Source of the DNA: Nemertoderma westbladi
Taxonomy: Eukaryota > Animalia > Xenacoelomorpha
Reading direction: 5' to 3'
DNA length: 64,000 nt
NCBI GenBank assembly: GCA_032718475.1
Contig: JAUCBJ010005613.1
Location: 13,614 to 77,613, forward strand
Shown here piece by piece: positions 4,574 through 48,183 of this stretch (its first letter is position 1; every line of letters starts with the position of its first letter). The position numbers and the translations under genes were made by a program. The notes below the pieces were generated by a model that saw nothing but the letters and a program-made list of their open reading frames with translations, was not told the DNA's origin and did no database searches.

Positions 4574-7051
4574 TAGATTTCTTAACAACTTATATTAATA
4601 ACCAGTGGAGAGTGGGATCTGTAATTTTGACCTACAACTCAGACAAAATTTGGAAAGACTATGAGTCTCAATGACTTAAGCACAGGAGCACGGGCATAAT
4701 TAATTTCCTGAACTCGATTTATGCTAATTTTGTAAGTTTAAATTTTAGTAGATCTATTTTCATTGCGTACAAAGAGAAAAACGCATGTAAATATTTATCT
4801 AATACACTCTGTCCATAGAAGTATAGGGTGGCCAATTTTGAATGGAAATAAGCCCTACTATTTCGTGATATCTTCTAAAGGAACCAACCTAACTTAGATG
4901 TTGGTTTTGATTTTGGATTGTATTTCAGGATCTAGACTTTTTAATCTCCATAGGTAATCTCAGGTACAATTCTAACCATAAACAGGCAAAGTCGTATCTA
5001 TTCTGCTAGCATACCCTACTATATTTAACTTGGGTCAGGTCAGGTTTTCCGAGTCATTGATACAGAAAGCTGCCAGCACCTGCCACGGATAGTAGATCGT
5101 GATAACAGACGAAATCATGCAAAAAAGAAGCGAAAACAATGTAGGGAGAATAGGATGTAGAATGGGAATGGGATGTATAATGGGATGTAGGGAATGTAGG
5201 TAGAACATAAGAAAACAGTTAGATCGTTTAAAATCCAGGTTAATATCAATATTAAACATAACTAGGTGTTATAATTAATTTAAAATGTTGTTGAATTTAT
5301 GTCGCCAAATTAAAATTACTCTGTTCCCATTACAATAATAATGAGAAGCCCAGAATGAAAATAAAAAATATAGGCCTTTCATGTTCTGTGAATTCCCCTG
5401 TTGCGTTGTTGTGATTGGTCCTGGTACCAGAAATTCCTCCATGGTCGTTACTAGCATTCGACCTATGACTATTCGACCTTTAAACATCAATTATGTTTAC
5501 GTACTGTTATGCTTGGCCTCTCTTAGTTTCAATACCTTTCCTTTACTCTTTTGTTGCATTTCCTAGCGCAGCCCCGTGAGAATATCTTGCGCTCGAGCCG
5601 AGACTTACCAGTCAGCTCACTCTGTGACTAATATAGCCCATGCTCTGCTGCTATAAACTACTGGCTTTTATCTTAGTTGCTTTTAGTTTTTTTTACATAG
5701 TTTGGTTTTTATTTTGCTACTATACCTGAAAGATTTTTTGATTTAAAATAATAATAAATAGTTTTAACTATTATTGATTTGTCACGATTTTACTCCATTG
5801 ATTGTTAACCCAGTGGATTGTATTGAAACTGATAAAGCTATAACAAGAGGAGCAGTAAGGATACCCACACAATCGTGCATCCTGGGATTATTGTGGGAGA
5901 AGCAACTACTGTAGCAACCTTTCAAGCATTAAAACCACTACCAAAACATAATACCTTGAATTACGTTTCGCTCTCTCGTATAATTTATTCAGACTGACCA
6001 ACGTTATCAACCCACTAAACATACGCATATGTAATATGCGTAACATTATTACCCTATATTATACATTATAACATATCATCCCAGTATGCATATGTTTTAC
6101 ATAATCTTTCTTTATCTTTTATGTCGATTTTAAGATATATGAGGCCTGCTGCTGCTGATGATGGCTGGTACTATGATAGGCTTCTATTTATCTAGGTAGG
6201 CCTATGCATATTTTATGTATGGAAGTACTTATGGCTGTCGCAGCCGTGAACCGTGCCCGTGTTTTGGTTGTATAAATCCGGAGTGGCCTCCGGCTCGTTA
6301 CATTTAAATTATTGGAAGTGTATTAAATATTATTACTGCTGTGTTAAAGATATAGTTTATTATATTAAAAAATGTATATTTAATTTTAACTACAACATAA
6401 CAATAATTTCATTCATATTTTACTTTACTTAGTAATGTTGTAACGTTATTTTGTATATTTAAAATATGAGGATAATATAAAGACTTTACTGTATTCTGAG
6501 ATTAGACGATGCATAACTCACATGTTACGAGACTCTGATATATGAAACTTTCTATAGTGTAACGATTTAGAAGTTGTCAATTAAATTACAATTTTTAGCG
6601 TCTCTCAATTCCATGATGCCCCGCTAGATGGCTACATGCACAAATTATATAAAAAACTTGTGAAGAATCTCCATGGCAATGTTAAGAAACAATGACTTAT
6701 TGATGCAAAGGTCATGGTATATTATAAAGTGTATAACGTAATACACTAATAACATAAAATCCTATATCATAGATTATGCTGTATTAATTAATATACAGGC
6801 TACCATTTCCGCAATACTGTATTACATTATAGATCAATTAAATATAAACCCTCCCCCAATATAATATAATTATATATAATATACAAATCCACTACCAGTA
6901 TAATCTATATATATAAACCCACTTCCAATATACACCAAGAGTTGGGGTTTTCCACAATACAATATAATGTAGTGGCGAATTGTCCGAATGAGTTTCTATT
7001 TCTTTTGTTCCAAATGAATTGATTGGCTGTTAGCCAAAGTGTGAATAGTGT

Positions 7052-7090
7052 TCATGTACTGACGGCAACACATTTGTTAGAGCGACACCA
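7052..7090 (-). CDS. Reprolysin exon 11 (terminal): [12 protein letters not shown]
   Basis: Acceptor ATATTCCTTTAG, phase 0; completes the GK-xC-xxx-KCV end of the ADAM Cys-rich domain; TGA at 7054-7052. Confidence 0.8.
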   Translation of the reverse strand, partial: WCRSNKCVAVST

Positions 7091-10000
7091 CTAAAGGAAT
7101 ATAACATATAATAAATATAATACAGCGCCTGAACTAATAGAGGATGGCGGTGTAAGTTCAAATCAATTTCGCATTGTTGTGACTCTACGCATTATACTTG
7201 AGACATTATTATTGCTTACGCTAACCCAGCGGTAAAATGGGAATCTGGCTTCAGCTGGGGGAGTAAAGAAACAGTTGGGTAGTGACGTAGTCCCTGCCTT
7301 ATAGGCTTTCCAGGATTTGGAAGTCACCGAGAATTAATCGGAAACTTAAGGTCCGATTATTTAGAGCAGCAGTAGTTCCAGTACTCCTCTACGGGAGTCC
7401 ATGCTGGGCTCTAACTGCTGAGGACACCAAATCTCTGGATGGCACATTCACAAGAATGCTACGCCGGGTTCATTGTGTCAAGTACAATGCACGCATCTCC
7501 AACCAGACACTATATAACATTGGAGGTGTCTCATTGGTTCCCCCAAGCTTGACACTAGAACAAAATCGCCTCCGCTTTGCAGGACATTGCTTTCGCCGTT
7601 AGGACCAGCCAGTGCATAATCTTGTACTTTGGCAGCCTCATGGAGTGAATAAGCATGGTGGACAGCCCATGACTTTCTTGAGACGCATCTTAAAGGACAC
7701 TGGCCTTAAAGATGCGGATGATCTAGCAAATGTCATGGGTGATAGGGAGTTGTGGCAGTGCAATTTTGTTGACAAGCCGGCACAGCATTCTTAAAAATGC
7801 AGCTGCAATGCAGCATGCCGATCGTAGTAGTAGTAGTAGTATAGGTAACAGCTTATAGGTATTAACGTACACATAAATAAAACTTAGTACACTATTATAG
7901 TAATAGTAGAGTACACATATATAAATTGAAATAACCAAGTATCCCTCTGTTTGTACAGGACCTAAACAACTGAGAGAATGGAACGATTGTCTCGACAATA
8001 TCGTGTTAGATGTATGGGTAACTATAACTTATATGGGTGTCTATAACATAACTTATATGGGTAACTATAACTTATATGGGTGTCTATAACATAATTTATA
8101 TGGGTATCTAAAACTTATCTGGGTATCTATAACTTATATGGGTATCTAAAACTTATATGGGTATCTAAAACTTATATGGGTATCTATAACTTATATGGGT
8201 ATCAATAACATAACTTATATGGGTAACTATAACTTATATGGGTGTCTATAACATAATTTATATGGGTATCTAAAACTTATCTGGGTATCTATAACTTATA
8301 TGGGTATCTATAACTTATATGGGTATCTAAAACTTATATGGGTATCTATAACTTATATGGGTATCAATAACTTATATGGGTATCTATAACTTATATGGGT
8401 ATCTATAACTTATATGGGTATCTATAACATAACTTATATGGGTATCTATAACATAACTTATATGGGTATCTATAACATAACTTATATGGGTATCTATAAC
8501 TTATATGGGTATCTAAAACTTATATGGGTATCTATAACTTATATGGGTATCAATAACTTATATGGGTATCTATAACTTATATGGGTATCTATAACTTATA
8601 TGGGTATCTATAACTATAACTTATATGGGTATCTATAACTTATATGGGTATCTATAACTATAACTTATATGGGTATCTATAACTATAACTTATATTGGTA
8701 TCTATAACTTATATGGGTATCTATAACTTATATGGGTATCTATAACATAACTTATATGGGTAACTATAACTTATATGGGTGTCTATAACATAATTTATAT
8801 GGGTATCTAAAACTTATCTGGGTATCTATAACTTATATGGGTATTTATAACTTATATGGGTATCTAAAACTTATATGGGTATCTATAACTTATATGGGTA
8901 TCAATAACTTATATGGGTATCTATAACATAACTTATATGGGTATCTATAACATAACTTATATGGGTATCTATAACATAACTTATATGGGTATCTATAACA
9001 TAACTTATATGGGTATCTATAACATAACTTATATGGGTATCTATAACTTATATGGGTATCTAAAACTTATATGGGTATCTATAACTTATATGGGTATCAA
9101 TAACTTATATGGGTATCTATAACTTATATGGGTATCTATAACTTATATGGGTATCTATAACTATAACTTATATGGGTATCTATAACTTATATGGGTATCT
9201 ATAACTATAACTTATATGGGTATCTATAACTATAACTTATATTGGTATCTATAACTTATATGGGTATCTATAACTTATATGGGTATCTATAACTATAACT
9301 TATATGGGTATCTATAACTATAACTTATATGGGTATCTATAACTTATATGGGTATCTATAACTATAACTTATATGGGTATCTATAACATAACTTATATGG
9401 GTATCTATAACATAACTTATATGGGTACCTATAACATAACTTATATGGGTATCTATAACAGAACTTATATGGGTATCTATAACTTATATGGGTATCTATA
9501 ACTATAACTTATATGGGTATCTATAACTTATATGGGTATCTATAACTATAACTTATATGGGTATCTATAACATAACTTATATGGGTATCTATAACATAAC
9601 TTATATGGGTACCTATAACATAACTTATATGGGTATCTATAACAGAACTTATATGGGTATCTATAACTTATATGGGTATCTATAACTATAACTTATATTG
9701 GTATCTATAACTTATATGGGTATCTATAACTATAACTTATATGGGTATCTATAACTTATATGGGTGTCTATAACTTATATGGGTATCTATAACTATAACT
9801 TATATGGGTATCTATAACTTATATGGGTATCTATAACTTATATGGGTATCTATAACTATAACTTATATTGGTATCTATAACTTATATGGGTATCTATAAC
9901 TATAACTTATATGGGTATCTATAACTATAACTTATATGGGTATCTATAACTTATATGGGTATCTATAACTATAACTTATATGGGTATCTATAACTATAAC

Positions 10001-13000
10001 TTATATTGGTATCTATAACTTATATGGGTATCTATAACTTATATGGGTATCTATAACTATAACTTATATGGGTATCTATAACTTATATGGGTATCTATAA
10101 CTATAACTTATATGGGTATCTATAACTATAACTTATATGGGTATCTATAACTTATATGGGTATCTATAACTATAACTTATATGGGTATCTATAACTTATA
10201 TGGGTATCTATAACTATAACTTATATGGGTATCTATAACTATAACTTATATGGGTATCTATAACTTATATGGGTATCTATAACTATAACTTATATGGGTA
10301 TCTATAACTTATATGGGTATCTATAACATAACTTATATGGGTATCTATAACTTATATGGGTATCTATAAATATAACTTATATGGGTATCTATAACTATAA
10401 CTTATATGGGTATTTATAACTTATATGGGTATCTATAACTATAACTTATATGGGTATCTATAACTATAACTTATATGGGTATCTATAACTTATATGGGTA
10501 TCTATAACTATAACTTATATGGGTATCTATAACTTATATGGGTATCTATAACATAACTTATATGGGTATCTATAACTTATATGGGTATCTATAAATATAA
10601 CTTATATGGGTATCTATAACTATAACTTATATGGGTATCTATAACTTATATGGGTATCTATAACTTATATGGGTATCTATAAATATAACTTATATGGGTA
10701 TCTATAACTATAACTTATATGGGTATTTATAACTTATATGGGTATTTATAACTTATATGGGTATCTATAACTTATATGGGTATCTATAACATATATGGGT
10801 ATCTATAACATAACTTATATGGGTATCTATAACATAACTTATATGGGTATCTATAACATAACTTATATGGGTATCTATAACATAACTTATATGGGTATCT
10901 ATAACATAACTTATATGGGTATCTATAACATAACTTATATGGGTATCTATAACATAACTTATATGGGTATCTATAACATAACTTATATGGGTATCTATAA
11001 CATAACTTATATGGGAATCTATAACATAACTTATATGGGTATCTATAACATAACTTATATGGGTATCTATAACATAACTTATATGGGTATCTAACTTCAG
11101 GGTATCTATAACATAAATTATATGGGTATCTATAACATAACTTATATGGGTATCTATAACTTATATGGGTATCTATAACATAACATATATGGGTATCTAT
11201 AACTTATATGGGTATTTATAACATAACTTATATGGGTATCTATAACATAACTTATATGGGTATCTATAACATAACTTATATGGGTATCTATAACTTATAT
11301 GGGTATCTATAACTTATATGGGTATCTATAATTTATATGGTTATCTGTAATTTATATGGGTATCTATAACTTATATGGGTATCTATAACTTATATGGGTA
11401 TCTATAACTTATATGGTTATCTGTAATTTATATGGGTATCTATAACTTATATGGGTATCTATAACTTATATGGGTATCTATAACATAACATATATGGGTA
11501 TCTATAACTTATATGGGTATTTATAACATAACTTATATGGGTATCTATAACATAACTTATATGGGTATCTATAACATAACTTATATGGGTATCTATAACT
11601 TATATGGGTATCTATAACTTATATGGGTATCTATAATTTATATGGTTATCTGTAATTTATATGGGTATCTATAACTTATATGGGTATCTATAACATAACT
11701 TATATGGGTATCTATAACATAACTTATATGGGTATCTATAACTTATATGGGTATCTATAACATAACATATATGGGTATCTATAACTTATATGGGTATTTA
11801 TAACATAACTTATATGGGTATCTATAACATAACTTATATGGGTATCTATAACATAACTTATATGGGTATCTATAACTTATATGGGTATCTATAACTTATA
11901 TGGGTATCTATAATTTATATGGTTATCTGTAATTTATATGGGTATCTATAACTTATATGGGTATCTATAACTTATATGGGTATCTATAACTTATATGGTT
12001 ATCTGTAATTTATATGGGTATCTATAACTTATATGGGTATCTATAACTTATATGGGTATCTATAACATAACTTATATGGGTATCTATAACATAACTTATA
12101 TGGGTATCTATAATTTATATGGTTATCTGTAATTTATATGGGTATCTATAACTTATATGGGTATCTATAACTTATATGGGTATCTATAACTTATATGGTT
12201 ATCTGTAATTTATATGGGTATCTATAACTTATATGGGTATCTATAACTTATATGGGTATCTATAACATAACTTATATGGGTATCTATAACATAACTTATA
12301 TGGGTATCTATAATTTATATGGTTATCTGTAATTTATATGGGTATCTATAACTTATATGGGTATCTATAACTTATATGGGTATCTATAACTTATATGGTT
12401 ATCTGTAATTTATATGGGTATCTATAACTTATATGGGTATCTATAACTTATATGGGTATCTATAACATAACATATATGGGTATCTATAACTTATATGGGT
12501 ATTTATAACATAACTTATATGGGTATCTATAACATAACTTATATGGGTATCTATAACATAACTTATATGGGTATCTATAACTTATATGGGTATCTATAAC
12601 TTATATGGGTATCTATAACATAACATATATGGGTATCTATAACTTATATGGGTATCTATAACTTATATGGGTATCTATAACATAACATATATGGGTATCT
12701 ATAACATAACATATATGGGTATCTATAACTTATATGGGTATTTATAACATAACTTATATGGGTATCTATAACATAACTTATATGGGTATCTATAACATAA
12801 CTTATATGGGTATCTATAACTTATATGGGTATCTATAACTTATATGGGTATCTATAACTTATATGGTTATCTGTAATTTATATGGGTATCTATAACTTAT
12901 ATGGGTATCTATAACTTATATGGGTATCTATAACATAACTTATATGGGTATCTATAACATAACTTATATGGGTATCTATAATTTATATGGTTATCTGTAA

Positions 13001-16000
13001 TTTATATGGGTATCTATAACTTATATGGGTATCTATAACTTATATGGGTATCTATAACTTATATGGTTATCTGTAATTTATATGGGTATCTATAACTTAT
13101 ATGGGTATCTATAACTTATATGGGTATCTATAACATAACATATATGGGTATCTATAACTTATATGGGTATTTATAACATAACTTATATGGGTATCTATAA
13201 CATAACTTATATGGGTATCTATAACATAACTTATATGGGTATCTATAACTTATATGGGTATCTATAACTTATATGGGTATCTATAATTTATATGGTTATC
13301 TGTAATTTATATGGGTATCTATAACTTATATGGGTATCTATAACTTATATGGGTATCTATAACATAACATATATGGGTATCTATAACTTATATGGGTATT
13401 TATAACATAACTTATATGGGTATCTATAACATAACTTATATGGGTATCTATAACATAACTTATATGGGTATCTATAACTTATATGGGTATCTATAACTTA
13501 TATGGGTATCTATAATTTATATGGTTATCTGTAATTTATATGGGTATCTATAACTTATATGGGTATCTATAACTTATATGGTTATCTGTAATTTATATGG
13601 GTATCTATAACTTATATGGGTATCTATAACTTATATGGTTATCTGTAATTTATATGGGTATCTATAACTTATATGGGTATCTATAACTTATATGGGTATC
13701 TATAACATATATGGGTATCTATAACATAACTTATATGGGTATCTATAACATAACTTATATGGGTATCTATAACATAACTTATATGGGTATCTATAACATA
13801 ACTTATATGGGTATCTATAACATAACTTATATGGGAATCTATAACATAACTTATATGGGTATCTATAACATAACTTATATGGGTATCTATAACATAACTT
13901 ATATGGGTATCTAACTTCAGGGTATCTATAACATAAATTATATGGGTATCTATAACATAACTTATATGGGTATCTATAACTTATATGGGCATCTATAACA
14001 TAACATATATGGGTATCTATAACTTATATGGGTATTTATAACATAACTTATATGGGTATCTATAACATAACTTATATGGGTATCTATAACATAACTTATA
14101 TGGGTATCTATAACTTATATGGGTATCTATAACTTATATGGGTATCTATAATTTATATGGTTATCTGTAATTTATATGGGTATCTATAACTTATATGGGT
14201 ATCTATAACTTATATGGGTATCTATAACTTATATGGTTATCTGTAATTTATATGGGTATCTATAACTTATATGGGTATCTATAACTTATATGGGTATCTA
14301 TAACATAACATATATGGGTATCTATAACTTATATGGGTATTTATAACATAACTTATATGGGTATCTATAACATAACTTATATGGGTATCTATAACATAAC
14401 TTATATGGGTATCTATAACTTATATGGGTATCTATAACTTATATGGGTATCTATAATTTATATGGTTATCTGTAATTTATATGGGTATCTATAACTTATA
14501 TGGGTATCTATAACTTATATGGGTATCTATAACATAACATATATGGGTATCTATAACTTATATGGGTATTTATAACATAACTTATATGGGTATCTATAAC
14601 ATAACTTATATGGGTATCTATAACATAACTTATATGGGTATCTATAACTTATATGGGTATCTATAACTTATATGGGTATCTATAATTTATATGGTTATCT
14701 GTAATTTATATGGGTATCTATAACTTATATGGGTATCTATAACTTATATGGGTATCTATAACTTATATGGTTATCTGTAATTTATATGGGTATCTATAAC
14801 TTATATGGGTATCTATAACTTATATGGTTATCTGTAATTTATATGGGTATCTATAACTTATATGGGTATCTATAACTTATATGGGTATCTATAACATAAC
14901 ATATATTGGTATCTATAACTTATATGGGTATTTATAACATAACTTATATGGGTATCTATAACATAACTTATATGGGTATCTATAACATAACTTATATGGG
15001 TATCTATAACTTATATGGGTATCTATAACTTATATGGGTATCTATAATTTATATGGTTATCTGTAATTTATATGGGTATCTATAACTTATATGGGTATCT
15101 ATAACTTATATGGGTATCTATAACATAACATATATGGGTATCTATAACTTATATGGGTATTTATAACATAACTTATATGGGTATCTATAACATAACTTAT
15201 ATGGGTATCTATAACATAACTTATATGGGTATCTATAACTTATATGGGTATCTATAACTTATATGGGTATCTATAATTTATATGGTTATCTGTAATTTAT
15301 ATGGGTATCTATAACTTATATGGGTATCTATAACTTATATGGTTATCTGTAATTTATATGGGTATCTATAACTTATATGGGTATCTATAACTTATATGGT
15401 TATCTGTAATTTATATGGGTATCTATAACTTATATGGGTATCTATAACTTATATGGGTATCTATAACTTATATGGGTATCTATAACTTATATGGTTATCT
15501 GTAATTTATATGGGTATCTATAACTTATATGGGTATCTATAACTTATATGGGTATCTATAATTAATATGGGTATCTATAACTTATATGGGTATCTATAAC
15601 TTATATGGGTATCTATAATTTATATGGTTATCAGTAATTTATATGGGTATCTATAACTTATATGGGTATCTATAACTTATATGGGTATCTATAACTTATA
15701 TGGGTATCTATAATTTATATGGGTATCTATAACTATAACTTATATGGGTATCTATAACTTATATGGGTATCTATAACTTATATGGGTATCTATAACTTAT
15801 ATGGGTATCTATAATTTATATGGGTATCTATAACTTATATGGGTATCTATAACATAACTTATATGGTTATCTATAACTTATATGGGTATCTATAACTTAT
15901 ATGGGTATCTATAATTTATATGGGTATCTATAACTTATATGGGTATCTATAATTTATATGGGTATCTATAACTTATATGGGTATCTATAACTTATATGGG

Positions 16001-37000: not shown

Positions 37001-40000
37001 AACACTGGTGGCGAGATCAACGCTTCTTTCACAGCTTTAAATGCTGCTGCTTGATCTGCATTCCAGACAATGTACTATAGACAGCATATTATGTAAAATT
37101 TTGGGACACTAAATCTGTGGTAGTGCTAGATCTAGACGCTGAGAAAGGGCGAATACTGGGGAAAACTGATTGAATGCATGGGAATACAGGCAAGAACAGC
37201 GAAAAACACACACATTTACATTACCCCCCCCCCCCCACCCCCCCCCCCCCCCCTCTTACTAAAATACAATAAGTGCTGTGCGTACTGTAACCAAGGCGTA
37301 CTAATATACAAGGCCATGCCATCGAGTTAACTGGGGGCGGTGACTGGGGGCAAGATTTTTTTTACAACAATTTGATATGGGGAGAGTTCTATAAATTTCC
37401 ATTTGCTGCAATTTGGTCAATGGACGTAATTGAAGCATCCTCATTATGTAAGATACAAAATTTTATGGTAGCTAGTGTTTTAGGTAGGTTTAGCTAGGAA
37501 TTTCGACCCTGGTTCCGACATCCTACTTCCCTCTATAAATATTTTGTAGTAGCTAGTTCTGTTACTATTTGTATAGAAAATGTTCCAGAAGATGTTAGCT
37601 ATTCATTTTAAAAAAAAATTATGTTCTAGAACAAATATTTTTTGTTCTAGAACATTTTTTAGAAAAAAATCTGGATTCTATTTAAAACTCATGGAATCTT
37701 TCTAAAACTTAAATTAAAACTTGAATCTTTATAAGATAATAATTAATTAATTCCTTTAAAGTATAAATACAGGTTTCAGTCCCTAAGGACTTTTTAAAAC
37801 CGAATTGATTATCAGTGGTCCCTAACAAAATTATCAATACGATAAAGAATTAAAAATTCATATAATTTACTGAGAACATTAGCAGTGGTAAGAGGTCTGT
37901 AATTGGATTTGTCCGTCACGTCGCCGGACTTATCCTTAACTAAAGGTAAAATATTGAATGAAAACAATGCAATAGGAATAAAATCATGAACATTACAACT
38001 AGTAAAAAGAGAGACAGGTACCGGTACACTAGAAGTCTGTCAGAAGAAATTAAAGTATGCTTCGCCGTTAAACCATCTGGGCCAGAAGTTTAAATTTCAA
38101 ATTCACCAAAGCCAGATGAAGTTTATTTATGGAGAACTTCATATCCCTGGTATTTGAAATGTCAGAGAATACAGAACGAATGTCATCAGAAGGAGAGCGA
38201 GGAACAGAGTTAAATACTATAACTAATACATTTATTATACTATCAACTTAACCCTGTAATAAAATTGTTATAAAAATTAGTTTTTCAAAATAGCCAAAAT
38301 ATATGATATAATAATTTTAATAATAACATATTTGACTTAATATTCGTTTACTGAGACTTACACTGGAATCTCCAGAACAAGTGGCTTTCGAACACAGGTC
38401 TTCTCCGACATGGTCATTCTGTATCGTGTATATGGTAGATTCCCCAAGGTATTGGCAGGTCTGGGCATTGCAACACTTATCTGCAGTTTCGCGGCAGTTC
38501 AGCACAGGTCCGCAGTCACACTGCTCTCCTTCATCAACAATGCCATTCCCACATTTCGGAGCCTACAAAAACAAAAACAAAAACAAAAACAAAAACAAAA
38601 ACAAATACAACTATTTAATTATACAATAATTGTATTATTTTAAATAAATACTAATATAAATTAATATAATTATAATAAATATAACAAACAATAATGATTA
38701 ATTACATATTCGACTAATATTAAAATAATATAAACGGAACACAACAATCGGTAGGTATAGATAGTTTCATATTAATAAGGTATCAATGTTTTGTTCTACA
38801 CTGTCAGTATAGCATTATCTTGTAAATTTACATAACATAAAACCAAAGAAACTGGTAACCATCACTGAACCATTACTGAGAAATATACAATGGTGTAATA
38901 TGTACCACAGTAGGAATAGTTGGTATATCAGTAACGTGGCTATCGGGATATTCAGCCATGAACGAGATAATTTTGATAAAATGGTAGGACAGTTTATGGG
39001 ACTGCAAATAACTAACTAACTACACCATGTCCTGGAATATAGTGTCTTTATTCTGGTACATGGCTCCCACCCTCAAATTTATAAATTTGATTACAAATTT
39101 GATAGCTGATTGGTTGATATGGGTTGTCAACATGTGTTCCTTGTACCTGAGGATCACTTTCATTTGCTTTCCAGAGGGAAATTTGAACATTGGTTTACAT
39201 ATTGTGAGCCTGTACCTCAATAAGCGGAAATTGAAAAATCATGTGCATTAATATTGTTAAAAAAGGCAATTCCCTTCAATTTTTCCGTTGCCAAAAAATT
39301 GAGTAGTTAGATAAACATGTCTAAGATGATTTTCCAATGCTCCAATAGATTGTTAATAGATTTTAACCAAGTGAGTAGTGTTTTAAAGATTGTTGTCCCA
39401 CAACAACATTGCCCATTTAAGTAAGCTATAATTACACTGTTATTAGTATTTATTTCTCAGTTAGTTGGGTACCTACACTAATATTTGTTATATATTTATT
39501 ATTATTACGTATTCTGATTTTTATGTTTGCATATTAATTGTTCGGTACCTTAAACGGAACCTTTAGGTTCGATAATTTTTGGCAGCAGTAGTACCACAGT
39601 ACACTTCTATGGGAGTCCATGATGGGCTCTAACAGCAGAGGATACCAAATCTCTGGATGGCACTTTCACAAGAATGCTGCGCTGGGTTCACTCTGTCAGG
39701 TACAATGAACACATCTTCAACTAAACTCTATACAGCATTGGAGGTTTTCCATTAATCTTCCCTAGCTTGACACTTGAACGGAACCGCCTCCGCTTTGCAG
39801 GACATTGCTATCGCCGTGATGATCAGCCAGTGCATAACCTTGTACTTTGGCGCTCTCATGGAGTGAATAAGCATGGTGGACAGCCCATGACTTTCTTGAG
39901 ACGCATCTTAAAGGACACTGGCCTTGAAGATGCGTATGATCTAGCAAATGTTATGGGTGCTAGGGAGTTGTGGCGGCGCAATTTTATCGACCAACCAGCA

Positions 40001-43000
40001 CAGCATTCTTAATATATATGTAATATATATATATATATATACTGCAGCTGCAATGCAGCATGCCGATCGTAGTAGTAGTACATGTAGTTCACTATGCCAA
40101 GTACAATGCACAGATCTCCAACCAGGCATTATATAACATTGGAGGTGTCTCATTGGTTCCCCCAACACTAGAACAAAATCGCCTCCGCTTTGCAGGACAT
40201 TGCTTTCGCCGTGAGCACCAGCCAGTGCATAATCTTGTGCTTATGGCGGCCTCATGGAGTGAATAAGCATGGTGGACAGCCCATGACTTTCTTGAGTGAG
40301 ACGCATCTTAAAGGACACTGGCCTTGAAGATGCGGATGATCTAGCAAATGTCATGGGTGATAGGGAGTTGTGGCAGAGCAATTTTGTCGACAACACAGAA
40401 CAGCATTCTTAATATACATGTAAAATATATATATGTAATATATATATAATGCAGCTGCAATGCAGCATGCCGATCGTAGTAGTAGTAGTTCACTATGCCA
40501 AGTACAATGCACACATCTCCAACCAGACGCTATATAACATTGGAGGCGTCTCTCATTGGTTCCCCCACCCTTGACACTAGAACAAAGCCGACTCCGCTTT
40601 GCAGGACATTGCTTTCGCCGTGAGGACCAGCCAGTGCATAATCTTGTACTTTGGAGGCCTCATGGAGTGAATAAGCATGGTGGACAGCCCATGAATTTCA
40701 TGAGACGCATCCTGAAGGACACTGGCTTTGAAGATGCGGATGATCTAGCAAATGTCATGGGTGATATGGAGTTGTGGTACAGTATTAAACCGAAACAAGC
40801 ACGATGAACTGGAGCTCTCACAATTCGCCCCCTAGCGGCAGACAGAGGGACTGTAAAAGTCTGTCTGTGTGTATAATTTTAATTAAGCAATGCTCGTAAA
40901 GTTACCACTGCCAAATTTCCGATGAATCAGATGGTTGGTTCTATAATTACAGCTACTTTTACATTTTGCCAATTCGCCCCCTAGCGACAGACATAGGAAC
41001 TATAGTCTGCCTGTGTGTAGAATTTTTAAACTTTTGATAGACTACATGTGTTGTGTACCAAGGATTTTGTCGACAAGCCGGCAAAGCATTCTTAAAAATG
41101 CAGTTGCAATGCAGCATGCCGATCCTAGTAGTATTAGTTCGCTACCAGAACAAAGAGAAGGTGAACTCAATTGTCATACCAGATAGTAATGATAGTGGGG
41201 AAGATGAATCTGATAATATTTTACCCAATATTATTGCTACCATTAAGGCTCATTGTTGTTCCTGAACAACATTCATTAAAAATATTCAAATAATAAAAAA
41301 AATAAATTTTTTGGCAGTAATGTGTTATTTTAGACTGTTTACAGTTTATCTAACCTAAATTTTTTTTTAAACCAGTAAAAATAATTCGAGCAGCAAATGG
41401 TTAAACTGATTTGTTGGTACTATTAGAGAGCTGCCCATGCAAGGTTTACAAATATGTAAAAACATTTGAATTTGGTTGCGAAATAGCTGAGATATGTTCA
41501 AATATGCGTTCTAATATTGCATGATTTTGCACCTGCGCTAGGCTACTTTATTCTATTTAATAAATTCATAATATTCTGGAACATACTCAAGCACTGTTGA
41601 TTGTGATCGGGCTCTGGGTAGTTTACCGCTCACGCAAAGGTGAGTGTGAACGGGCTCTGGGTAGTATACCGCTCACGCAGAGGTGAGTGTGAACGGGCGC
41701 TGGGTAGTTTACCGCTCACGTACAGGTGAGTGTGAACGGGCTCTGGGTAGTATACCGCTCACGCAGAGGTGAGTGTGAACGGGCGCTGGGTAGTTTACCG
41801 CTCACGTACAGGTGAGTGTGAACGGGCTCTGGGTAGTTTACCGCTCACGTACAGGTGAGTGTGAACGGGCTCTGGGTAGTATACCGCTCACGCAGAGGTG
41901 AGTGTGAACGGGCTCTGGGTAGTTTACCGCTCACTCAAAGGTTGGTGTGAACGGGCTCTGGGTAGTTTACCGCTCACGCACAGGTGAGTGTGAACGGGCT
42001 CTGGGTAGTTTACCGCTCACGCACAGGTGAGTGTGAACGGGCTCTGGGTAGTTTACCGCTCACGCACAGGTGAGTGTGAACGGGCTCTGGGTAGTTTACC
42101 GCTCACGCACAGGTGAGTGTGAACGGGCTCTGGGTAGTTTACCGCTCACGCACAGGTGAGTGTGAACGAGCTCTGGGTAGTTTACCGCTCACGTACAGGT
42201 GAGTGTGAACGGGCTCTGGGTAGTTTACCGCTCACTCAAAGGTTAGTGTGAACGGGCTCTGGGTAGTTTACCGCTCACGTACAGGTGAGTGTGAACGGGT
42301 CTTTATAAAGGGAAATAAATTCCCTTAGATCCGGATTTGCACCTATAAATATCAGTGATCAGATCATTGAATGTCCACAATTGGCATATCGCTGTTTGTG
42401 GTCGGCATCTGATGCATTGAAGTCGCATTCTTCTATTAGGTCTAATAACTGTAACAATTAAATGTGTTGATAATGTATTGGAAACATATTTAATTATTTT
42501 TCTGAATAAAAATATATATGTATTTTATGTATTTTTTCTTTTATATTTATTCGACGCAAGTATCAGCTGATTACTCTCAAAAGTAAAACTGTAACCTGTT
42601 CTATTGTGTTTAGTTTGTTGTTTTGGTTAAAATAACGTGCCACTGTAACGCTCCTTACCCTAAATTGAGAATTTATCATTGAGGCGGGGTATTAATTCGC
42701 CAAGACTGGATTTGCGTCCACTCTCACCCCTGTCTCCCTGTGCTTCTCCCAACAATATAAAATTTATACTTACTTCGGGCTTGGTTTCACTAAGACAAGA
42801 AGTTGTGTGAGACATATACTCTTCATATTTGCTGATACTGCAGCTGGAAAATCTTTCTGCCCATCTGAAATTATTAAATGAATAAAACTAATCCTGATTG
42901 CGCAATTTATTTACTATGAAAGAAATGGGAAATTAAGGATGCGTGGGTGAATAAGCAATGTTATAATTGATAATTAATAATAATTAATTTATTTCCAAAA

Positions 43001-46000
43001 TCGAATAAACCCAACTATAACAGAACTTATTTACTCACACATGTGAACCGGGTGTGTCATTCATTACACAATAGCGTTTGCCTTGGAATGGATCCGGTTG
43101 GGCGTCGCATTCGCAGTCATCAGTATCATGGTCGAAAGCCAAGGTGTGACCGAGCTCATGGGACATGGTAGCAGCGACGACCTTGGGTAACTGCCAGGCG
43201 GGAGTTAGAACAACTCCTCCACCCTGATCATCACAAAGTACTGGATTAGATGTCCCTCCATTGGTATCGTAATCACTGAAATTATTAATCAAATCAAATG
43301 CAATTATCCTGTCGTACAATTTAAATAATAAATAGTCGTAAATAATATTTTTTCCCTCGGGAAATCCGCTGAATCATGGTTACGTGGTTACCATGGTTAC
43401 GTGTAAGCAGTGATTTTTAACGATAAATAATGATATAATTGTTCGTAATGATCTCAAGTGTTATTTTGTTTTGTTACATTACGGTCGTTTGTTACATTAT
43501 TTATGACTTACTGAATTACTTAATTTACAATGTCTAATTCCGTACAATGCGATTAACTACAACAGTTGCTATTTGTTTAATTATCATGTTTTCGAAGTCC
43601 AGTAAGACTGTGTAAAATTTCTCAAGTAAAACTTTAACAGCAAACCGTTGATACAGACAGGACGCTGTTAAGTAGCCGTAATGTAAAAAAAAAACGATAA
43701 TGTGTGACTGGAAAAGCATGCCGGCGTCTGTGAGCATGTCCCAAATTAATATGGGTTTAGTCATTTAGTTTATGAAAAATGAAATTACCTAATTAAAACT
43801 GCAGCATCAATTTCCCAGTCACCATCAGCTTTCTTCTTATCAACATAATCAACAAAATTATCCAGGATTTCCTTTTTGAATGCGGCGACATCGGTCTTCG
43901 TGTAGGGATATGCAATATAGTCTCTATCGTGCCATAATTCCACACGAACTGCTACAAAAACGACATTGATATCTTCATAGTTCTGTGGAAATAATCGTTA
44001 TTCATAATTCTATAGTATGTTATGAAAGTTAATTAATAATTAATATAAGAATAAAAGTTGAATGAAGAATACGTATGCAATAACCAGTAAGGTTTAAGGA
44101 ACGAAGTGGAACGAATAAACACTAATTGTTTATAACGAAATCAAAATATAAACAGCCATATGATCTTGACGGTCATGACTTTTCTATTCCCAATAATAAT
44201 TAATTAATAAACAATAATAATTTAGCAAGCTCATCATTTTTTAATAATTCGCAGCGCAAATATATTATTTAAGGAATATTAATTCACTTACCCGGTTTAA
44301 AGCTGCTATACTCGCTTCCACAGTGTGAGATACTGATTTTGTAACATCTTGAGTAAAATATCGAGAATCTTTCGGGGTCCATACGTGAAACTAATAATAA
44401 TAATTAAACAATTAGTTGAAAGTTAATTAATAAAGAAGTAAGATTTTCTTCTCCAGGGATTACACACAAAGTCCGACGACTTATTTCCAGTTCGGTCCCC
44501 CAGAACTGTACTTCCCAGAGGAAACTCTAGTACTCATTTAGCTACCACTATAGGAACCCATGCAAGCATGCAACCTATTTCATAATTTGATTGGTTGGTT
44601 TGCGTGAGCGAATTTGATTGATTGGTTGGAGTGGTGATCACGTTGGTTGGTGTGTTCCCCTTTCCCCTTTTAGCTACTTGCAAGACTGTATGAGATACGC
44701 CCTGGCTAGACCCTTTAACCCTATTAAACTCGGAGGGGGGGGGGGGGGGGGGGGGGGGGGTTGTTACACCGGTTTTTCGGCGTTCGCAATAAGATGAAAT
44801 TCATATAAAATAAGAGAGAAATTTCAAACTTGATTTTTTCGGCGTGTGCCAAATTTTGGTGCCGGCACCGAATTTTGAAATACGTCAATTTTGTAAATTC
44901 ATTGTTAAAACCTGTTTTTTTGCGCAACAAAGGTTTTTTGAGTTTTTGGTATCGATGGAATATATACGAGTTGCACAAGGCGTATTAAACTTGTATTTTT
45001 CGTTGCTTTGTTCAAAATTTGGTGCCAGCTCGAAATTTTGAAAATCCGTTCAACAGTTCAATTGATTGTGGCAGCTTATTTCTCGCATTTAAGAGGTTTA
45101 TGGAATTATTATCTAACTAGACGTCTCAAACTTATATTTTTTGGAAGCAGATGCAAAATTTTTGTGTTAAAACCAAAATTTGAAATCCATCAAATACTGT
45201 ATATCAATTGATTGTGTCACCTTGTCTCTTACTTTATATGGGTTTGTGAGGGTTGCAAATTCAATGGAATAAGTAAAAATTGCATAAGAGTTCTTAAACT
45301 TGTATTTTTCGGCGGTGGTTTAAAAATTATTGCGTCAGCACCAAATTCATGAAAATAACAACTTGATCAATAGATAGCATCATCCTTTTTCTTGCTTTAT
45401 ACGCGTTTATGAAACCGATGGAATCATTAAAAACAGCGCTAGACATCTCAAACTTGTACATTTTGGTGATATGTACGAAATTTGGTGCTATAGCACCAAT
45501 ATTTGTCATATTACGCCGCGAAGTACGAGTAGCAATAATCTGAAAAATTAGAAATATATTTGATTATAATCAGAACCCCAGAAAACCTGAAAATTTGACT
45601 TTTTTGCATCGTATAAGTCAATTAAACTTTTTTTCTTTAAACTGAAAACTGCTGGTTACATGTTTTAGAGGAAAAAAACTTCCATTTATAACTAACAGAT
45701 CATTTTAAAAATTTCTTCCAATGAATTCAATGCCCCAGAAAGCCTGTATTAAAAAAAGACTAGCGGAAAATTCTAACGAAAAATTTTTTTCAATCCGATT
45801 CAGACTAATGAAATCTGGGGTTAATATGACATTGTACAACTTTAAACCCCGGTATTAATAAAATAATTCGTGTCGTGGGTGGAACGGGTCGATGCTGGGA
45901 TCGAACCCACAACTTCCGGACCAACCACCACACCAAGATGGAACTTAATGAGGGGCTTTAATAAGTAATAGACTACATAACCATTATTGCATGCTCTTCG

Positions 46001-48183
46001 TTTGCTTTAAAAAAATGTAAAAAATCAACATTTTTTCTCCTCAGCGCAGGGCGAAAAATTAACAATTGTATTAAAAAGTTAAAAATTATAACTCCATAGA
46101 TAGAACAATCGTCAATAAATTTGAAATTCAAGGTGATGGGTAGAGGAGATATTGTCTCAGTGGATATCGCAATGGCTATAGTTTGTTATAATGTGTTGTA
46201 TGTAGCTTACACTAACATGGTGAACTTTATGCTACACATGCAGTAATCACGGATTCAGGATCGTTTGCTGTGGATACTTACACAAGAGTGGTCACAAACT
46301 ACGGCTAGTCGAACATATTTCCTTGGTAATTCCCTCTTCACGACTCCAGAAGATGATCTATAAGATTAATTGTAATTAGTTTACAATTTTATCTATCGAC
46401 ATAAGAAACTTAAATCTTAGCCTATTAATTAATATTATATTATTGCGTCACAAAATACTTGTAATGCGGCAATTAACTTGATTGATAACGACTATTGAAA
46501 GCGACAAAAATCAATAAATTGCACATAAAACCCTGTAAGTACAATGTAAGTACAATGTAAGTACAATGTAAGTACAATGTAAGTACAATGTAAGTACAAT
46601 GTAAGTACAATGTAAGTACAATGTAAGTACAATGTAAGTACAATGTAGTAGTAGTAGTACAATGTAAGTACAATGTAAGTACAATGTAAGTACAATGTAA
46701 GTACAATGTAAGTACAATGTAAGTACAATGTAAGTACAATGTAAGTACAATGTAAGTACAATGTAAGTACAATGTAGTAGTAGTAGTACAATGTAAGTAC
46801 AATGTAAGTACAATGTAAGTACAATGTAAGTACAATGTAAGTACAATGTAAGTACAATGTAAGTACAATGTAGTAGTAGTAGTACAATGTAAGTACAATG
46901 TAAGTACAATGTAAGTACAATGTAAGTACAATGTAAGTACAATGTAAGTACAATGTAACCTAGTAGTCGACCTAGTAGTAGTACAATGTAAAAAATGATT
47001 GTAATTGAATTCGCGTGGTTTTTGGCTCCACCAAAATCTTTATTAAATCAGTGACTTTTGTACAATTACGTTCAATGGTGTAAAGTGAACTAAGAGTAAT
47101 CAATATCTACAATAAGTGTCGGGAAAACATTAAATAATATAAAAAAGACAACGACACTAAATGCAATAATTGCATTTATTATTGCATTTTATGCTCAAAG
47201 ACTTTTAAATGATAATCAAACGCTCGTAGCTAAAGAATTAAGGCGAAATTATAAATTCTGGCTCACCCAGCAGGATGAGGGAGGTAAAATTATCTTTCTT
47301 TCAAATTTCATGTAATATCATTAAGAATTGTAGAAAAATTGGGGGGTCTAGCTACCTTTAACGACACTCATATTCCAGGACATGGTGTACAAACTTAACA
47401 TCATAAGTATGCACCTGCGGCTGTCTCTTCAACGCAAAATAAATACAGTTCGCAATCAGCCATGTTAATCAGCCGGCATTCATTATCAAAATACAGTAGC
47501 ATTTTAGCAATGGTTTTCATAGCGAGGAGCCTTCGGGTTGCTTCTGGTGTTTTGTGTTTTAGGGTCATTGTTAATTTCTCCTCTTTTTCATTAGATCTTT
47601 GTCTTGTAAGCAATAAGTTTGAGGATAAGACTGACGTTATGTTGCTTAAAGTAATGCCCGAGTAGGCTCTAGGCTTATATGAATGTATGTATGTATATTC
47701 GATTTTATTGTTGAATGTAATGGGTGAATTTCCTCATCCAAAACCCCTTGGTTTTGGATGGCATTTCATTGTTAGAAGCTATTCATTAGTCTGTCTGTGT
47801 GAAAATCTGTCTGATTCATGTCATCAATTACTCAATTATATGTTGTTACACAAGTACAAATCGATGTCTCTCAAACTTTTCATAATGGGTTTCTGAAGCA
47901 AATAGTTATAATAGAATTAACAAGATATAATTACATTTGGTTGTATGTAGTCTCTCTCTTCTTACTGTAAATTTAAATAACTGTAAAAGTAAAATAAAAA
48001 TGATGTAACATACGAACTTTGTTTTATAACTTACCCGAGATCTGGCACCTGATCAACATTGATCTCTTTCCCTAGCGGTTTAGCATTTATATTTTCTATA
48101 TCATCAATTACCTCCCCGGCTTTATCCAAAGGAGATCCCGATACTAGGAGTGAAATACAAAACAGAGAAAAAACTCCCAACAT
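7052..48183 (-). CDS. Secreted ADAM/reprolysin (M12B) metalloprotease-disintegrin-Cys-rich protein, 11 exons, 501 aa; complement join(48035-48183,46282-46357,44292-44390,43789-43982,43039-43275,42774-42864,38362-38562,32310-32421,28005-28110,16588-16789,7052-7090)
   Basis: All ten introns are GT-AG with matching phases (2,0,0,2,2,0,0,1,2,0); the 1506-nt frame is open; domains are in canonical order: signal, [78 protein letters not shown]. Confidence 0.9.
7120..7298 (+). mobile_element. Degenerate tRNA-derived SINE-like head
   Basis: B-box-like GTTCAAATC near 7154; ACCCAGCGGTAAAATGGGAATCTGGC resembles conserved central domains of metazoan SINEs (recalled, not searched). Confidence 0.4.
7301..7841 (+). 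mobile_element. RTE-clade LINE 3' fragment
   Basis: Close reverse-complement match to 3226-3762; encodes [16 protein letters not shown]; ends GCATGCCGATC(GTA)n. Confidence 0.9.
8012..16259. repeat. 8.2-kb satellite of 19-bp (TATGGGTATCTATAACTTA) and 24-bp (plus ATAAC/CTATA) units with higher-order structure, in intron 10
   Basis: Directly visible; diagnostic variant blocks recur. Confidence 0.97.
16588..16789 (-). CDS. Reprolysin exon 10 (Cys-rich domain): [14 protein letters not shown]...MKCATGK
   Basis: Acceptor TATATCCAG, donor GTAAGC, phase 2 to 0; CGxLxC and KCxxGK motifs. Confidence 0.9.
17152..18155 (+). pseudogene. LINE ORF1 (CxxC...CxxC finger, Q-rich linker, coiled coil, RRM-like), one frameshift near 17940
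   Basis: CNTC...CKNC; [23 protein letters not shown] coiled coil; [12 protein letters not shown] and PRGVLL motifs; alternate frame continues [18 protein letters not shown]...VIDEF to TGA at 18153-18155. Confidence 0.8.
18190..21190 (+). pseudogene. LINE ORF2 (AP endonuclease + reverse transcriptase + Cys/His knuckle), frameshifts near 18270 and 20425
   Basis: [21 protein letters not shown] (APE); [37 protein letters not shown] (RT); [12 protein letters not shown]...CSC...DEEHILSSC. Confidence 0.9.
21912..22288. mobile_element. Foldback MITE (~377 bp) with ~150-bp imperfect terminal inverted repeats
   Basis: TTGTCAAGCACGTTAA...GTTAGTACCAAAGTATGTAA...AAAAAGCAACAAGACCTAGACGTT is mirrored at 22175-22288. 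Confidence 0.85.
22640..24006 (+). mobile_element. Degenerate LINE ORF2, 5' part (endonuclease to start of RT)
   Basis: IIIGG*FNCRID (APE), [30 protein letters not shown]; many stops and frameshifts. Confidence 0.8.
24007..25899. mobile_element. Non-autonomous DNA transposon with ~400-bp TIRs, CATG termini and 7-bp TSD (P-superfamily-like)
   Basis: Starts CATGACCTACTAAATATACGACCATGAAAGC, ends GCTTTCATGGTCGTATATATAGTAGCTCATG; GTCCGAT at 24000-24006 and 25900-25906; no transposase ORF. Confidence 0.85.
25900..27272 (+). mobile_element. Degenerate LINE ORF2, 3' part (continues 22640-24006)
   Basis: [44 protein letters not shown], Cys-rich end, AAATC/AAT tail at ~27248-27272. Confidence 0.8.
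27406..28000. repeat. 44-bp tandem array (CTATAAGTTTGAAATTTAGAATACCAACCTCCTCTAATTTTTAT), ~13 copies
   Basis: Direct periodicity; abuts the exon 9 donor site. Confidence 0.93.
28005..28110 (-). CDS. Reprolysin exon 9 (Cys-rich domain): [34 protein letters not shown]
   Basis: Acceptor CAACTTCCAG, donor GTAAGT, phase 1 to 2; CY..N..G..YGNCG motif. Confidence 0.9.
28152..28466. repeat. Inverted repeat (~115-bp arms) containing tRNA B-box-like motifs
   Basis: CACAGCTAAGTAAATAGGAAATGACGTCAGGTGGGATCGAACTGGTGACCTCCAGGATGGAAGT mirrored by ACTTCCAATCTGGAGGTCTCCATTTCGATCTCACCTGGATTTCATTGCCTAATTTGCTAAGCTGTG. Confidence 0.75.
28696..28940. repeat. 15-bp tandem array (TTGCTGTAGTGCACG)n, ~16 copies
   Basis: Direct periodicity, nearly perfect. 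Confidence 0.95.
29020..30040. repeat. 41-bp tandem array (AGTCAGTGTCCTTTAAGAGGCTTCTTATGTAAGTCAAGGCC), ~25 copies
   Basis: Unit starts at 29020, 29061, 29102 and so on. Confidence 0.95.
30539..30714. repeat. 44-bp tandem repeat, 4 copies (GAGTTCCTATTGTCTGTCTGTCTACCAGTACAGTTGAAGTAACA)
   Basis: Direct periodicity. Confidence 0.9.
32310..32421 (-). CDS. Reprolysin exon 8: [37 protein letters not shown]
   Basis: Acceptor TTTTTTATGCAG, donor GTGAGT, phase 0 to 1; DGxxC....YC..G.C......C start of the Cys-rich domain. Confidence 0.9.
33050..33350 (+). repeat. Diverged fragments of the TIR family seen at 24240-24420
   Basis: TACACCATGTCCTGGAATATAGTGTCCTAATTCAGTGAC and CCTCCCTCCTCC...GCTTTCATTC match the left arm of 24007-25899; similar pieces at ~39020 and ~47360. 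Confidence 0.55.
33400..33575 (+). repeat. Dispersed repeat, second copy at ~41405-41585
   Basis: TGATTTGTTGGTACTA...GCAAGG...AAATATGTAAAAA...GAAATAGCTGAGATATG is shared. Confidence 0.65.
33925..34665. repeat. Hairpin-rich non-autonomous element (unclassified)
   Basis: ~60-bp-arm hairpin 33930-34070 around CGAGCGAGCGCAGCGAGGG; second hairpin TACTTTGCAGCGTT...AACGCTGCAAAGTA at 34558-34602; 34076-34110 is inverted relative to 34625-34663. Confidence 0.6.
34769..37080 (-). mobile_element. 5'-deleted Ty3/Gypsy LTR retrotransposon (RNase H, integrase, PPT, 3' LTR) in intron 7
   Basis: Open pol fragment; PPT GGGAGGAGA at 35013-35005 followed by a TG...CA LTR of ~236 bp (35004-34769); gag, protease, RT and 5' LTR absent. 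Confidence 0.85.
35188..37032 (-). CDS. Gypsy pol C-terminal half: RNase H + HHCC/DDE integrase
   Basis: [31 protein letters not shown]; HESHQG...CEEC; [22 protein letters not shown]; stop-free but has no true start. Confidence 0.92.
   Translation of the reverse strand: MKEALISPPVLAQFDISAETTLHTDASKTKGFGFALLQRQNHKWRLIQCGSRFLKDVETRYAMVELEALAILWAIRKCKVYLKGLQEFTVITDHRPLVRIFNDYTLDQIENVKLQSYLEKLNGYQFNVVWKQGKEHKIPDALSRYPIEDPEDDEEEHRLEALQHASVMEANIGTITQGLHDSSLDRHCSAKDPVLENIKLIAKDDPNYQDLITAIIQGFTCNKQNTPYVQRFKRFWTELSVEDNLVLRGCRLVIPHASIKSVIKLLHESHQGIDRMKRRARDILFWPGMSNDLTQAVEDCEECLLHRPSNPTEPLAADPLPTRVFEVVSADLFSFAGNKYLAYADRLSGFPFLAKWAQDPNSEQVSAALQHFFVQTGVPVVLRSDGGPQFRSEEFQDFLSRWGVQWVPSSPYYPKSNGHAEATVKVLKHLVMKHNGNIKSEGFLNGLLELRNTPRVEGRSPAQYVFGCNLRSKVPAHPRSFAPAWQKLASDVDDKRTAEFYKSENYYNRSTRQLNPIKSGSTVMIQNPSTKKWDKSGQVIFVGEHRDYTIKLPSGGVIWRNRHFLRPCLSKEDNKQVVKSETHTAPPDETTGTPLPLRRSQRTRRQPNRLNVQP
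38362..38562 (-). CDS. Reprolysin exon 7 (shortened disintegrin): [39 protein letters not shown]...[13 protein letters not shown]
   Basis: Acceptor (TTTTTG)nTAG, donor GTAAGT, phase 0 to 0; CGNG...GEQCDCG signature. Confidence 0.93.
39581..41137 (+). mobile_element. Three head-to-tail RTE 3' fragments (~39581-40080, 40087-40488, 40488-41137); the third is interrupted at ~40779-41063
   Basis: Each encodes RLRFAGHC.R...PVHNLVL and ends in GCATGCCGATC plus (GTA)n-like tail. Confidence 0.88.
41600..42300. repeat. 43-bp tandem array (GTGTGAACGGGCTCTGGGTAGTTTACCGCTCACGCACAGGTGA), ~16 copies
   Basis: Unit starts at 41988 and 42031, for example. Confidence 0.95.
42774..42864 (-). CDS. Reprolysin exon 6: [30 protein letters not shown]
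   Basis: Acceptor AATTTCAG, donor GTAAGT, phase 2 to 0; FSxCS...CL end of the M12B domain. Confidence 0.92.
43039..43275 (-). CDS. Reprolysin exon 5 (catalytic site): ...[22 protein letters not shown]...YCVM
   Basis: Acceptor AATTTCAG, donor GTGAGT, phase 2 to 2; HExxHxxxxxHD zinc motif and Met-turn. Confidence 0.95.
43789..43982 (-). CDS. Reprolysin exon 4: [23 protein letters not shown]...EIDAAVLI
   Basis: Acceptor TTTCCACAG, donor GTAATT, phase 0 to 2; matches the Y..xNx...V.xExW...D.I and D.A.L motifs. Confidence 0.9.
44292..44390 (-). CDS. Reprolysin exon 3: [33 protein letters not shown]
   Basis: Acceptor TTATTATTAG, donor GTAAGT, 99 nt, phase 0 to 0. Confidence 0.8.
44719..45820 (-). 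mobile_element. piggyBac-like MITE in intron 2
   Basis: TTAA|CCCTATTAAA left end, GGGG|TTAA candidate right end; inverted homolog of 50455-51484. Confidence 0.65.
46282..46357 (-). CDS. Reprolysin exon 2: [25 protein letters not shown]
   Basis: Acceptor TCTTATAG, donor GTAAGT, phase 2 to 0; dibasic site then the KYVxLxVVxD first strand of M12B. Confidence 0.9.
46535..46990. repeat. 11-bp tandem array (GTAAGTACAAT)n with (GTA)4 interruptions, in intron 1
   Basis: Direct periodicity. Confidence 0.95.
48035..48183 (-). CDS. Reprolysin exon 1: signal peptide [16 protein letters not shown] plus acidic propeptide
   Basis: ACAAG-ATG at 48183; hydrophobic core and VSG cleavage motif; donor GTAAGT in phase 2 matching exon 2. 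Confidence 0.8.

Follow-up and report, generated by a model that had tools for sequence, protein, structure and literature searches.

A fast-evolving, probably secreted M12B metalloprotease of Nemertoderma westbladi with a P-III-like domain order and, as predicted, a short Cys-free propeptide and a shortened disintegrin arm

The soluble forms of ADAM9, ADAM12 and ADAM28, as well as ADAMDEC-1, keep a full prodomain. According to section 4 of PMC4885070, these are anchor-free proteases derived from ADAMs; the ADAM9, ADAM12 and ADAM28 forms are splice forms of membrane genes, and ADAMDEC-1 has no Cys-rich domain and carries Asp as its third zinc ligand (PMC4885070). In the account given there, the M12B prodomain comprises about 200 residues and is held to aid folding and latency, and the sole exception named is ADAMTS13, a secreted M12B enzyme whose propeptide has 41 residues and is dispensable for secretion and function (PMC4885070, section 4). 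The P-III snake venom metalloproteinases (SVMPs) have a secreted M-D-C layout in which only a few residues follow the Cys-rich domain. They are described as keeping a full prodomain, which acts via a cysteine switch (PMC13252954), as usually having a full disintegrin arm, and as ADAM28-derived venom-gland products that form expanded families in snakes (PMC4885070; PMC7245079; PMC4963849). In the snake route reported in PMC7245079 and PMC4963849, ADAM28 gained a stop where its EGF part begins. In the SVMP of Naja atra called Kaouthiagin-like (K-like; PDB 3K7N), 17 residues are deleted at the junction of shoulder and arm and the molecule is I-shaped; section 8 of PMC4885070 states that the function of this short-arm form is open. 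Secreted invertebrate members of the reprolysin family have been described from the proboscis of Eulalia (PepM12B; PMC10885894) and the salivary gland of Charonia (PMC5519703), and the nearest BLAST matches reported for Eulalia PepM12B, with values of 23-33%, are ADAMTS13/20 and a single SVMP (PMC10885894). Both enzymes are described there by BLAST likeness, and a prodomain-less ADAM-type M-D-C layout is not a feature that these descriptions give (PMC10885894; PMC5519703). Given the soluble ADAMs and the secreted invertebrate M12B enzymes, a soluble reprolysin is in itself unsurprising.

Analysis of a 64,000-nucleotide window (the whole stretch of DNA studied, to which all coordinates refer) revealed a gene on the minus strand that runs from an ATG at 48183 to a stop ending at 7052. 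Sequence reading and splice-site scoring gave 11 exons with a summed coding length of 1506 nt (501 codons plus the stop). All ten introns, which range from 174 to 11215 nt, have GT..AG ends and matching phases. The initial annotation had proposed eleven in-frame exons across 41 kb (48183-7052) and a stop five residues past the last Cys; the exon limits were exact, and the stop was seen in exon 11 with contig support. It had also described a signal-pro-M12B-disintegrin-Cys-rich protein of P-III-like architecture. The domain order of this description stands, but its "pro" part is predicted to be a short Cys-free peptide and not a reprolysin prodomain, and its disintegrin domain to be partial; the likeness to P-III enzymes fails in the prodomain and in half of the disintegrin arm.

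The predicted protein shares the order of M12B domain, disintegrin shoulder and ADAM_CR domain with membrane ADAMs of the ADAM12/Meltrin type (P0012 from Acropora, P0007 [Bemisia Meltrin] and P0034 [Pan ADAM12]). It differs from them in having a short arm, an Ala in the zinc motif, and neither a 200-residue prodomain nor EGF, membrane and cytoplasmic parts. Domain content, as read from the sequence, excludes a canonical membrane ADAM, since the full prodomain, the full arm and the EGF, transmembrane and cytoplasmic parts are missing. The predicted product is not a P-III SVMP, as it has no cysteine-switch prodomain. It is likewise not an ADAMTS, a group marked by a thrombospondin type-1 repeat and by a D* domain where a disintegrin shoulder would lie, judging from a true disintegrin shoulder in exon 7 and from the absence of a thrombospondin match in any exon scanned with Pfam; in ADAMTS13, a true disintegrin fold is missing, and thrombospondin, spacer and CUB domains, all absent here, are present. 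Searches of the open-access literature yielded no description of a protein that combines a K-like arm deletion with the lack of both anchor and prodomain.

None of the six sequencing runs of the source organism is recorded as RNA, and run X4 is listed as "DNA?". X4 behaves as an RNA run, because its contigs are spliced and its depth in unique intron bins is 0; run X6 gave no contigs. An X4 contig of 905 nt (over 42330-46500) skips four introns exactly, with intron ends CT..AC, and joins exons 2 to 3, 3 to 4, 4 to 5 and 5 to 6. Another contig, of 378 nt (over 4550-7140), covers 6803-7092 and runs from the stop into the untranslated region without a joint; the 88 letters that overhang it correspond to the 3' end of exon 10, which gives the junction of exons 10 and 11. 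Since this one contig leads from exon 10 through exon 11 and the stop into the 3' UTR (6803-7051; this extent is the reach of the contig, and the true end may differ) with no onward splice, the soluble form is the assembled form. Onward splicing to EGF or transmembrane exons as the main form, the outcome named earlier as contrary to a soluble product, was not what X4 displayed. The earlier list of junctions was borne out in transcripts for five of ten (exons 2-3, 3-4, 4-5, 5-6 and 10-11, all joined in X4 contigs); the other five (exons 1-2, 6-7, 7-8, 8-9 and 9-10) are predicted from splice-site scoring and phase. A retrocopy was rejected as the origin of the spliced contigs, as X4 has no unique-intron depth and X1 and X2 have no such joints among the rows listed. 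These results indicate that the gene is real, transcribed and spliced.

The five predicted junctions bear on an alternative that we regard as very unlikely, namely that the model is incomplete through missed prodomain or arm exons, or that it represents a soluble splice form of an ordinary ADAM, as ADAM9, ADAM12 and ADAM28 have. Two in-phase candidate exons would fit this alternative, one of 30 nt in intron 1 and one of 219 nt in intron 7; their scores fall among those of true exons, but both are free of Cys and of ADAM likeness. The window ends 7 kb past the stop. When its six-frame translation, cut into 3464 pieces, was searched with profiles for EGF/TM, prodomain and mid-disintegrin regions, none matched (best E, 0.33), in an insensitive search whose positive control found one of three exons. 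Against missed exons at the 5' end, intron 1 is only 1677 nt long and one quarter of it is tandem repeat, and the 5' contig of X4 reaches 238 nt beyond exon 2, which fits exon 1 plus 89 nt of UTR. Against missed arm exons, the arm deletion is internal to exon 7, away from the exon edges. At the 3' end, the X4 contig has no onward joint and a depth comparable to that of the 5' contig (1475 and 1186), where contig depth is not taken as an expression level and contigs drop rare isoforms.

Exon 1 (48035-48183, minus strand; 149 nt, ending in phase 2) contains the ATG, a likely signal peptide of about 16 residues and the start of an acidic propeptide. Among the coding exons it alone reaches a hydropathy mean near 1.9 over 19 residues, located at residue 1; no coding exon after it has a 19-residue mean above 0.95, and TM-like hydropathy was not detected in exons 2 to 11. 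The signal peptide was judged by eye: the N terminus is hydrophobic, and small residues stand where cleavage would be plausible. The acidic stretch that follows extends up to a dibasic KR site (46333-46338, minus strand) within exon 2 (46282-46357, minus strand; 76 nt, phase 2 to 0), which encodes the end of the propeptide, the first M12B strand and two extra Cys. Exon 2 was assigned as the top-scoring splice candidate, by its joining to exon 3 in the X4 contig and by alignment. Intron 1 also contains a frame of 110 codons on the minus strand (47401-47733), which was rejected as exon 2: it has no good donor and no Pfam match, and X4 uses 46282-46357.

The protein was compared with 127 references, comprising the best 120 of 1648 matches to a coral ADAM and seven others, a biased set that holds no SVMP. 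Ahead of the first protease strand, 63 residues were counted, compared to 207-254 in all six measurable references. The propeptide of about 42 residues contains no Cys, whereas the same region of the references carries two to three Cys each. The profile Pep_M12B_propep gave no match in the exons scanned or in the window. Such a short, Cys-free "pro" region is predicted to provide no cysteine switch; the reprolysin prodomain of about 200 residues is likewise predicted to be absent, given the predicted junction of exons 1 and 2.

The M12B domain continues through exon 3 (44292-44390; 99 nt, phase 0 to 0), exon 4 (43789-43982; 194 nt, phase 0 to 2), exon 5 (43039-43275; 237 nt, phase 2 to 2) and exon 6 (42774-42864; 91 nt, phase 2 to 0), all on the minus strand; both junctions of exons 3, 4 and 5 and the junction of exons 5 and 6 are seen in X4, and exon 6 holds the end of the domain. 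Per-exon Pfam scanning of exons 1 to 10 (exon 11 is too short to scan) gave no match in exons 1, 2, 3 and 10. The Reprolysin profile matched exon 5 with an E value of 2e-9 (38.2 bits versus a cut-off of 20.8) and, weakly, exons 4 and 6, in agreement with the M12B assignment made initially. PDB matches of exon 5 were ADAM33, ADAM8 and SVMPs. The 11-residue zinc motif in exon 5 (43128-43160, minus strand) retains the three zinc-binding His and the catalytic Glu of HEXXHXXGXXH, and the Met of the Met-turn, also in exon 5, lies 22 residues after the third His (M12B range, 12-24 after the motif). Position 8 of the motif is Ala, unchanged in X1, X2 and X4, versus Gly in all 125 motif-bearing references (of 127). 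All six conserved Cys of the protease domain are retained. In the first M12B strand in exon 2, the Glu of calcium site I is replaced by Arg; VAP1 has Lys at this position, according to PMC4885070. Calcium sites I and III look lost in the predicted protein. The two extra Cys of exon 2 lie four residues apart just after the first protease strand (46282-46300, minus strand); the references shown have no counterpart to them, and they may pair in a local disulfide that is new. On these features, the predicted protein belongs to M12B and deviates at one position of the zinc motif (Gly to Ala), and proteolytic activity is predicted.

The exchange of Gly for Ala, the altered first strand and the loss of calcium sites could instead point to a secreted protease of weak or no activity whose Cys-rich domain would let it work as a binder or decoy; a dead enzyme could do without its latency domain at no harm. 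We consider this quite unlikely, since the three His, the Glu, the spacing of the Met-turn and the six conserved protease Cys survive four changes per site.

Exon 7 (38362-38562, minus strand; 201 nt, phase 0 to 0) encodes an intact disintegrin shoulder, with seven Cys and the pattern of calcium site II, followed by a shortened arm. Its Disintegrin match covers positions 1-33 of 75 of the Pfam profile (E, 8e-4; 20.6 bits versus a cut-off of 35.1). The arm, measured between the final Cys of the shoulder and the penultimate Cys of the arm, comprises 26 residues with two Cys, compared to 37-41 residues with seven Cys in all 113 measurable references (of 127). It ends in exon 8 (32310-32421, minus strand; 112 nt, phase 0 to 1), where one further conserved Cys is lost; overall, the arm is 13 residues shorter and six Cys fewer, and the calcium site III pattern is absent. 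One of seven apparently missing Cys columns, in exon 6, was left uncounted as a one-column alignment shift. Of 18 PDB matches, 3K7N is the only one that aligns across residues 2-59 of exon 7, and the K-like enzyme shares a deletion at the junction of shoulder and arm. The net loss here is 13 residues with six Cys, whereas the K-like enzyme retains two arm Cys and the pattern of calcium site III. An AlphaFold model of exon 7 alone (mean pLDDT, 56.7; below 50 at residues 45-67) was uninformative on the arm. The short arm is a prediction that depends on the predicted junction of exons 7 and 8.

The ADAM Cys-rich domain starts in exon 8 and continues through exon 9 (28005-28110, minus strand; 106 nt, phase 1 to 2), which was assigned by its ADAM_CR match and phases, and exon 10 (16588-16789, minus strand; 202 nt, phase 2 to 0), which includes the variable region. 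The coding part of exon 11 (7052-7090, minus strand; 39 nt) holds the last two Cys. ADAM_CR matched exon 8 (E, 2e-6) and exon 9 (E, 0.008), each below the cut-off when taken alone; the best PDB match of exon 8 is ADAM22, and exon 10 alone had no Pfam or PDB match. All 13 Cys of the Cys-rich domain (exons 8 to 11) align with the references, 27 conserved Cys columns are retained in the alignment with the ADAM references, and the mature part contains 30 Cys, an even number. Exons 9 to 11, including exon 10, are basic (16 Lys and Arg versus 5 Asp and Glu). The tail after the last Cys has five residues; the shortest tail among 102 measurable references (of 127) has 21, in a partial record, and the others run into EGF. 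We infer that the last exon corresponds to the exon that carries the stop of the snake ADAM28 copies.

Searches with exon 5 yielded no homologue among 22 candidates at an E value of 1e-5. Against 1.84 billion representatives, exon 5 gave four matches at an E value of 0.001, including one repeat artefact (P0001), and the best true match had 42% identity over 53 residues; a close relative was not found with this short query. The nearest named proteins were ADAM12/Meltrin types from coral, insect, mollusc and vertebrate; identity to them was 25-29% throughout, with a best match of 28.6% over 497 positions, compared to 40-48% between the coral and vertebrate ADAM12-types themselves. A tree was built from 31 rows, in which SVMP, ADAM10/17 and ADAMTS are absent and from which two of 32 chosen references were dropped for lacking the exact motif. 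The gene stands on a very long branch (4.25 changes per column versus a median of 0.17), and the tree leaves it unplaced; part of the branch length may be lineage-wide. Domain content and the even distances suggest that the gene likely descends from an ADAM12/Meltrin-type gene as a fast-evolving offshoot. From the same two observations, and not from the tree, we infer that it is independent of the snake enzymes, and the fact that ADAMs of vertebrates and of invertebrates are alike in their 25-29% identity to it argues against descent by the ADAM28 route of snakes.

Comparison with the DNA run X2 over 42676-44486 revealed two differences across 621 nt of exon, as against 16 across 1190 nt of intron (Fisher P = 0.044; one comparison, with all 18 of the 18 differences listed, from two contigs). 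Both exonic differences, one synonymous and one nonsynonymous, lie in exon 3 and occur in X2 and X4, and all listed indels are intronic. Neither an exon indel nor a stop was seen in X1, X2 and X4 over exons 2 to 6 and exon 11 among the rows shown, and the coding part of exon 11 had no difference in X2 or X4. The proposed selection on the reading frame thus finds modest support: the 501-codon frame is intact and exon differences are depleted in X2. These data weigh against a decaying duplicate whose domains erode without function. Extreme divergence and the loss of several features would suit such decay, but the frame remains open over 501 codons, the splice sites are strong, the transcripts are spliced, Cys were lost in an even number, and the exons show depleted SNPs without indels or stops in the rows just mentioned. 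We consider this alternative extremely improbable.

Recent duplicates were not detected, as the DNA contigs of X1 and X2 had no extra exon-bin depth over exons 2 to 6 at at least 85% likeness. This differs from the expanded snake family and bears on the proposal that the protein is a venom or a prey-directed gland toxin convergent on snake P-III metalloproteinases, which is in our view unlikely. The proposal draws on the P-III domain order with a stop right after the Cys-rich domain, the very long branch, the arm deletion resembling the K-like enzyme, a likely secreted-peptide gene 6 kb upstream, and the reports of secreted M12B enzymes in the proboscis or salivary glands of invertebrates (PMC10885894; PMC5519703). 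The rattlesnake gene mdc-1, a secreted ADAM28 copy, is reported not to be expressed in the venom gland (PMC7245079). Because this secreted copy is not venom expressed, the architecture does not imply venom.

The best explanation, to which we give a probability of about 0.6, is that the gene product is a secreted M12B protease which evolves fast, is activated by a convertase, arrived independently at a P-III-like layout and probably cleaves extracellular proteins. After removal of the signal peptide, a convertase would cleave at the KR site and release a free, soluble zinc endopeptidase of 443 residues. The acidic, Cys-free propeptide of 42 residues could not serve as a cysteine switch, and latency would be weak or imposed externally by granule storage, pH or an inhibitor; weak latency of this kind may be likened to ADAMTS13 with its short, dispensable propeptide. 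The shortened arm would lose calcium site III and re-pair its cysteines. The molecule may be shorter or more extended than a C-shaped ADAM, as in the K-like enzyme, with the Cys-rich exosite repositioned, and the basic Cys-rich end may act as an exosite that binds substrate or matrix. Most likely, the enzyme would be made by secretory cells and would digest proteins of the matrix or of food. If this explanation holds, a natural ADAM-type enzyme seemingly without prodomain and full arm makes two questions, latency and folding without a prodomain and the function of a short arm, testable in one protein. The first step by which snake venom proteases evolved, a stop just after the Cys-rich domain, would also appear repeatable in a distant animal, with venom itself not implied.

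A more far-reaching scenario, which we likewise hold to be unlikely, would make the protein a snake-P-III-like gland weapon that an invertebrate lineage derived independently from a Meltrin-type ADAM by three losses, which echo separate vertebrate cases, namely SVMPs (anchor), the K-like enzyme (shoulder/arm) and ADAMTS13 (prodomain). It would fold and be stored without a chaperone prodomain and be released together with the peptide of the neighboring gene. That neighbor is a likely two-exon gene for a secreted-peptide precursor on the minus strand (54401-56082), with exons at 56082-55857 and from 54504, matching phases (1 to 1) and about 109 residues. The putative precursor has a hydrophobic start followed by an 18-residue stretch that lies between RK and KR sites and contains two Cys eight residues apart, and it has an NVP triplet; its intron holds a hexamer array, and it gave no Pfam match above noise.

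The introns of the protease gene are rich in repeats, and the satellite, LINE and Gypsy elements noted initially were placed in introns 10, 9 and 7. Intron 10 contains a 19-bp satellite of about 395 copies (8013-16259; 8.2 kb). A fairly intact LINE-type element lies antisense to the gene in intron 9 (17146-21190, plus strand); an ORF1-like first frame of 307 codons is followed by endonuclease and reverse transcriptase (18256-20430) over two frames, an endonuclease-reverse transcriptase frame of 724 codons and then a frame of 255 codons. The Gypsy-type pol fragment in intron 7 (35188-37074, minus strand) encodes RNase H, an H2C2 finger and integrase, and its open reading frame had no reverse transcriptase match. 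A LINE-like fragment occurs in several degenerate minus-strand copies (3240-4500, 7150-7850 and 39500-41100), each ending beside short TAG/TAC repeats. Unrelated tandem arrays were found at 1-780, 27406-28000, 29018-30039, 41586-42299 and 59651-62775 (periods 21, 44, 41, 43 and 59), and the 44-mer array begins 5 nt past the donor of exon 9. Upstream of the gene (48184-48282, minus strand), a TATA-like box is located 92-99 nt from the ATG. Directly before the ATG stands an AG that follows a T-rich tract and could be an acceptor for an upstream noncoding exon or a spliced leader.
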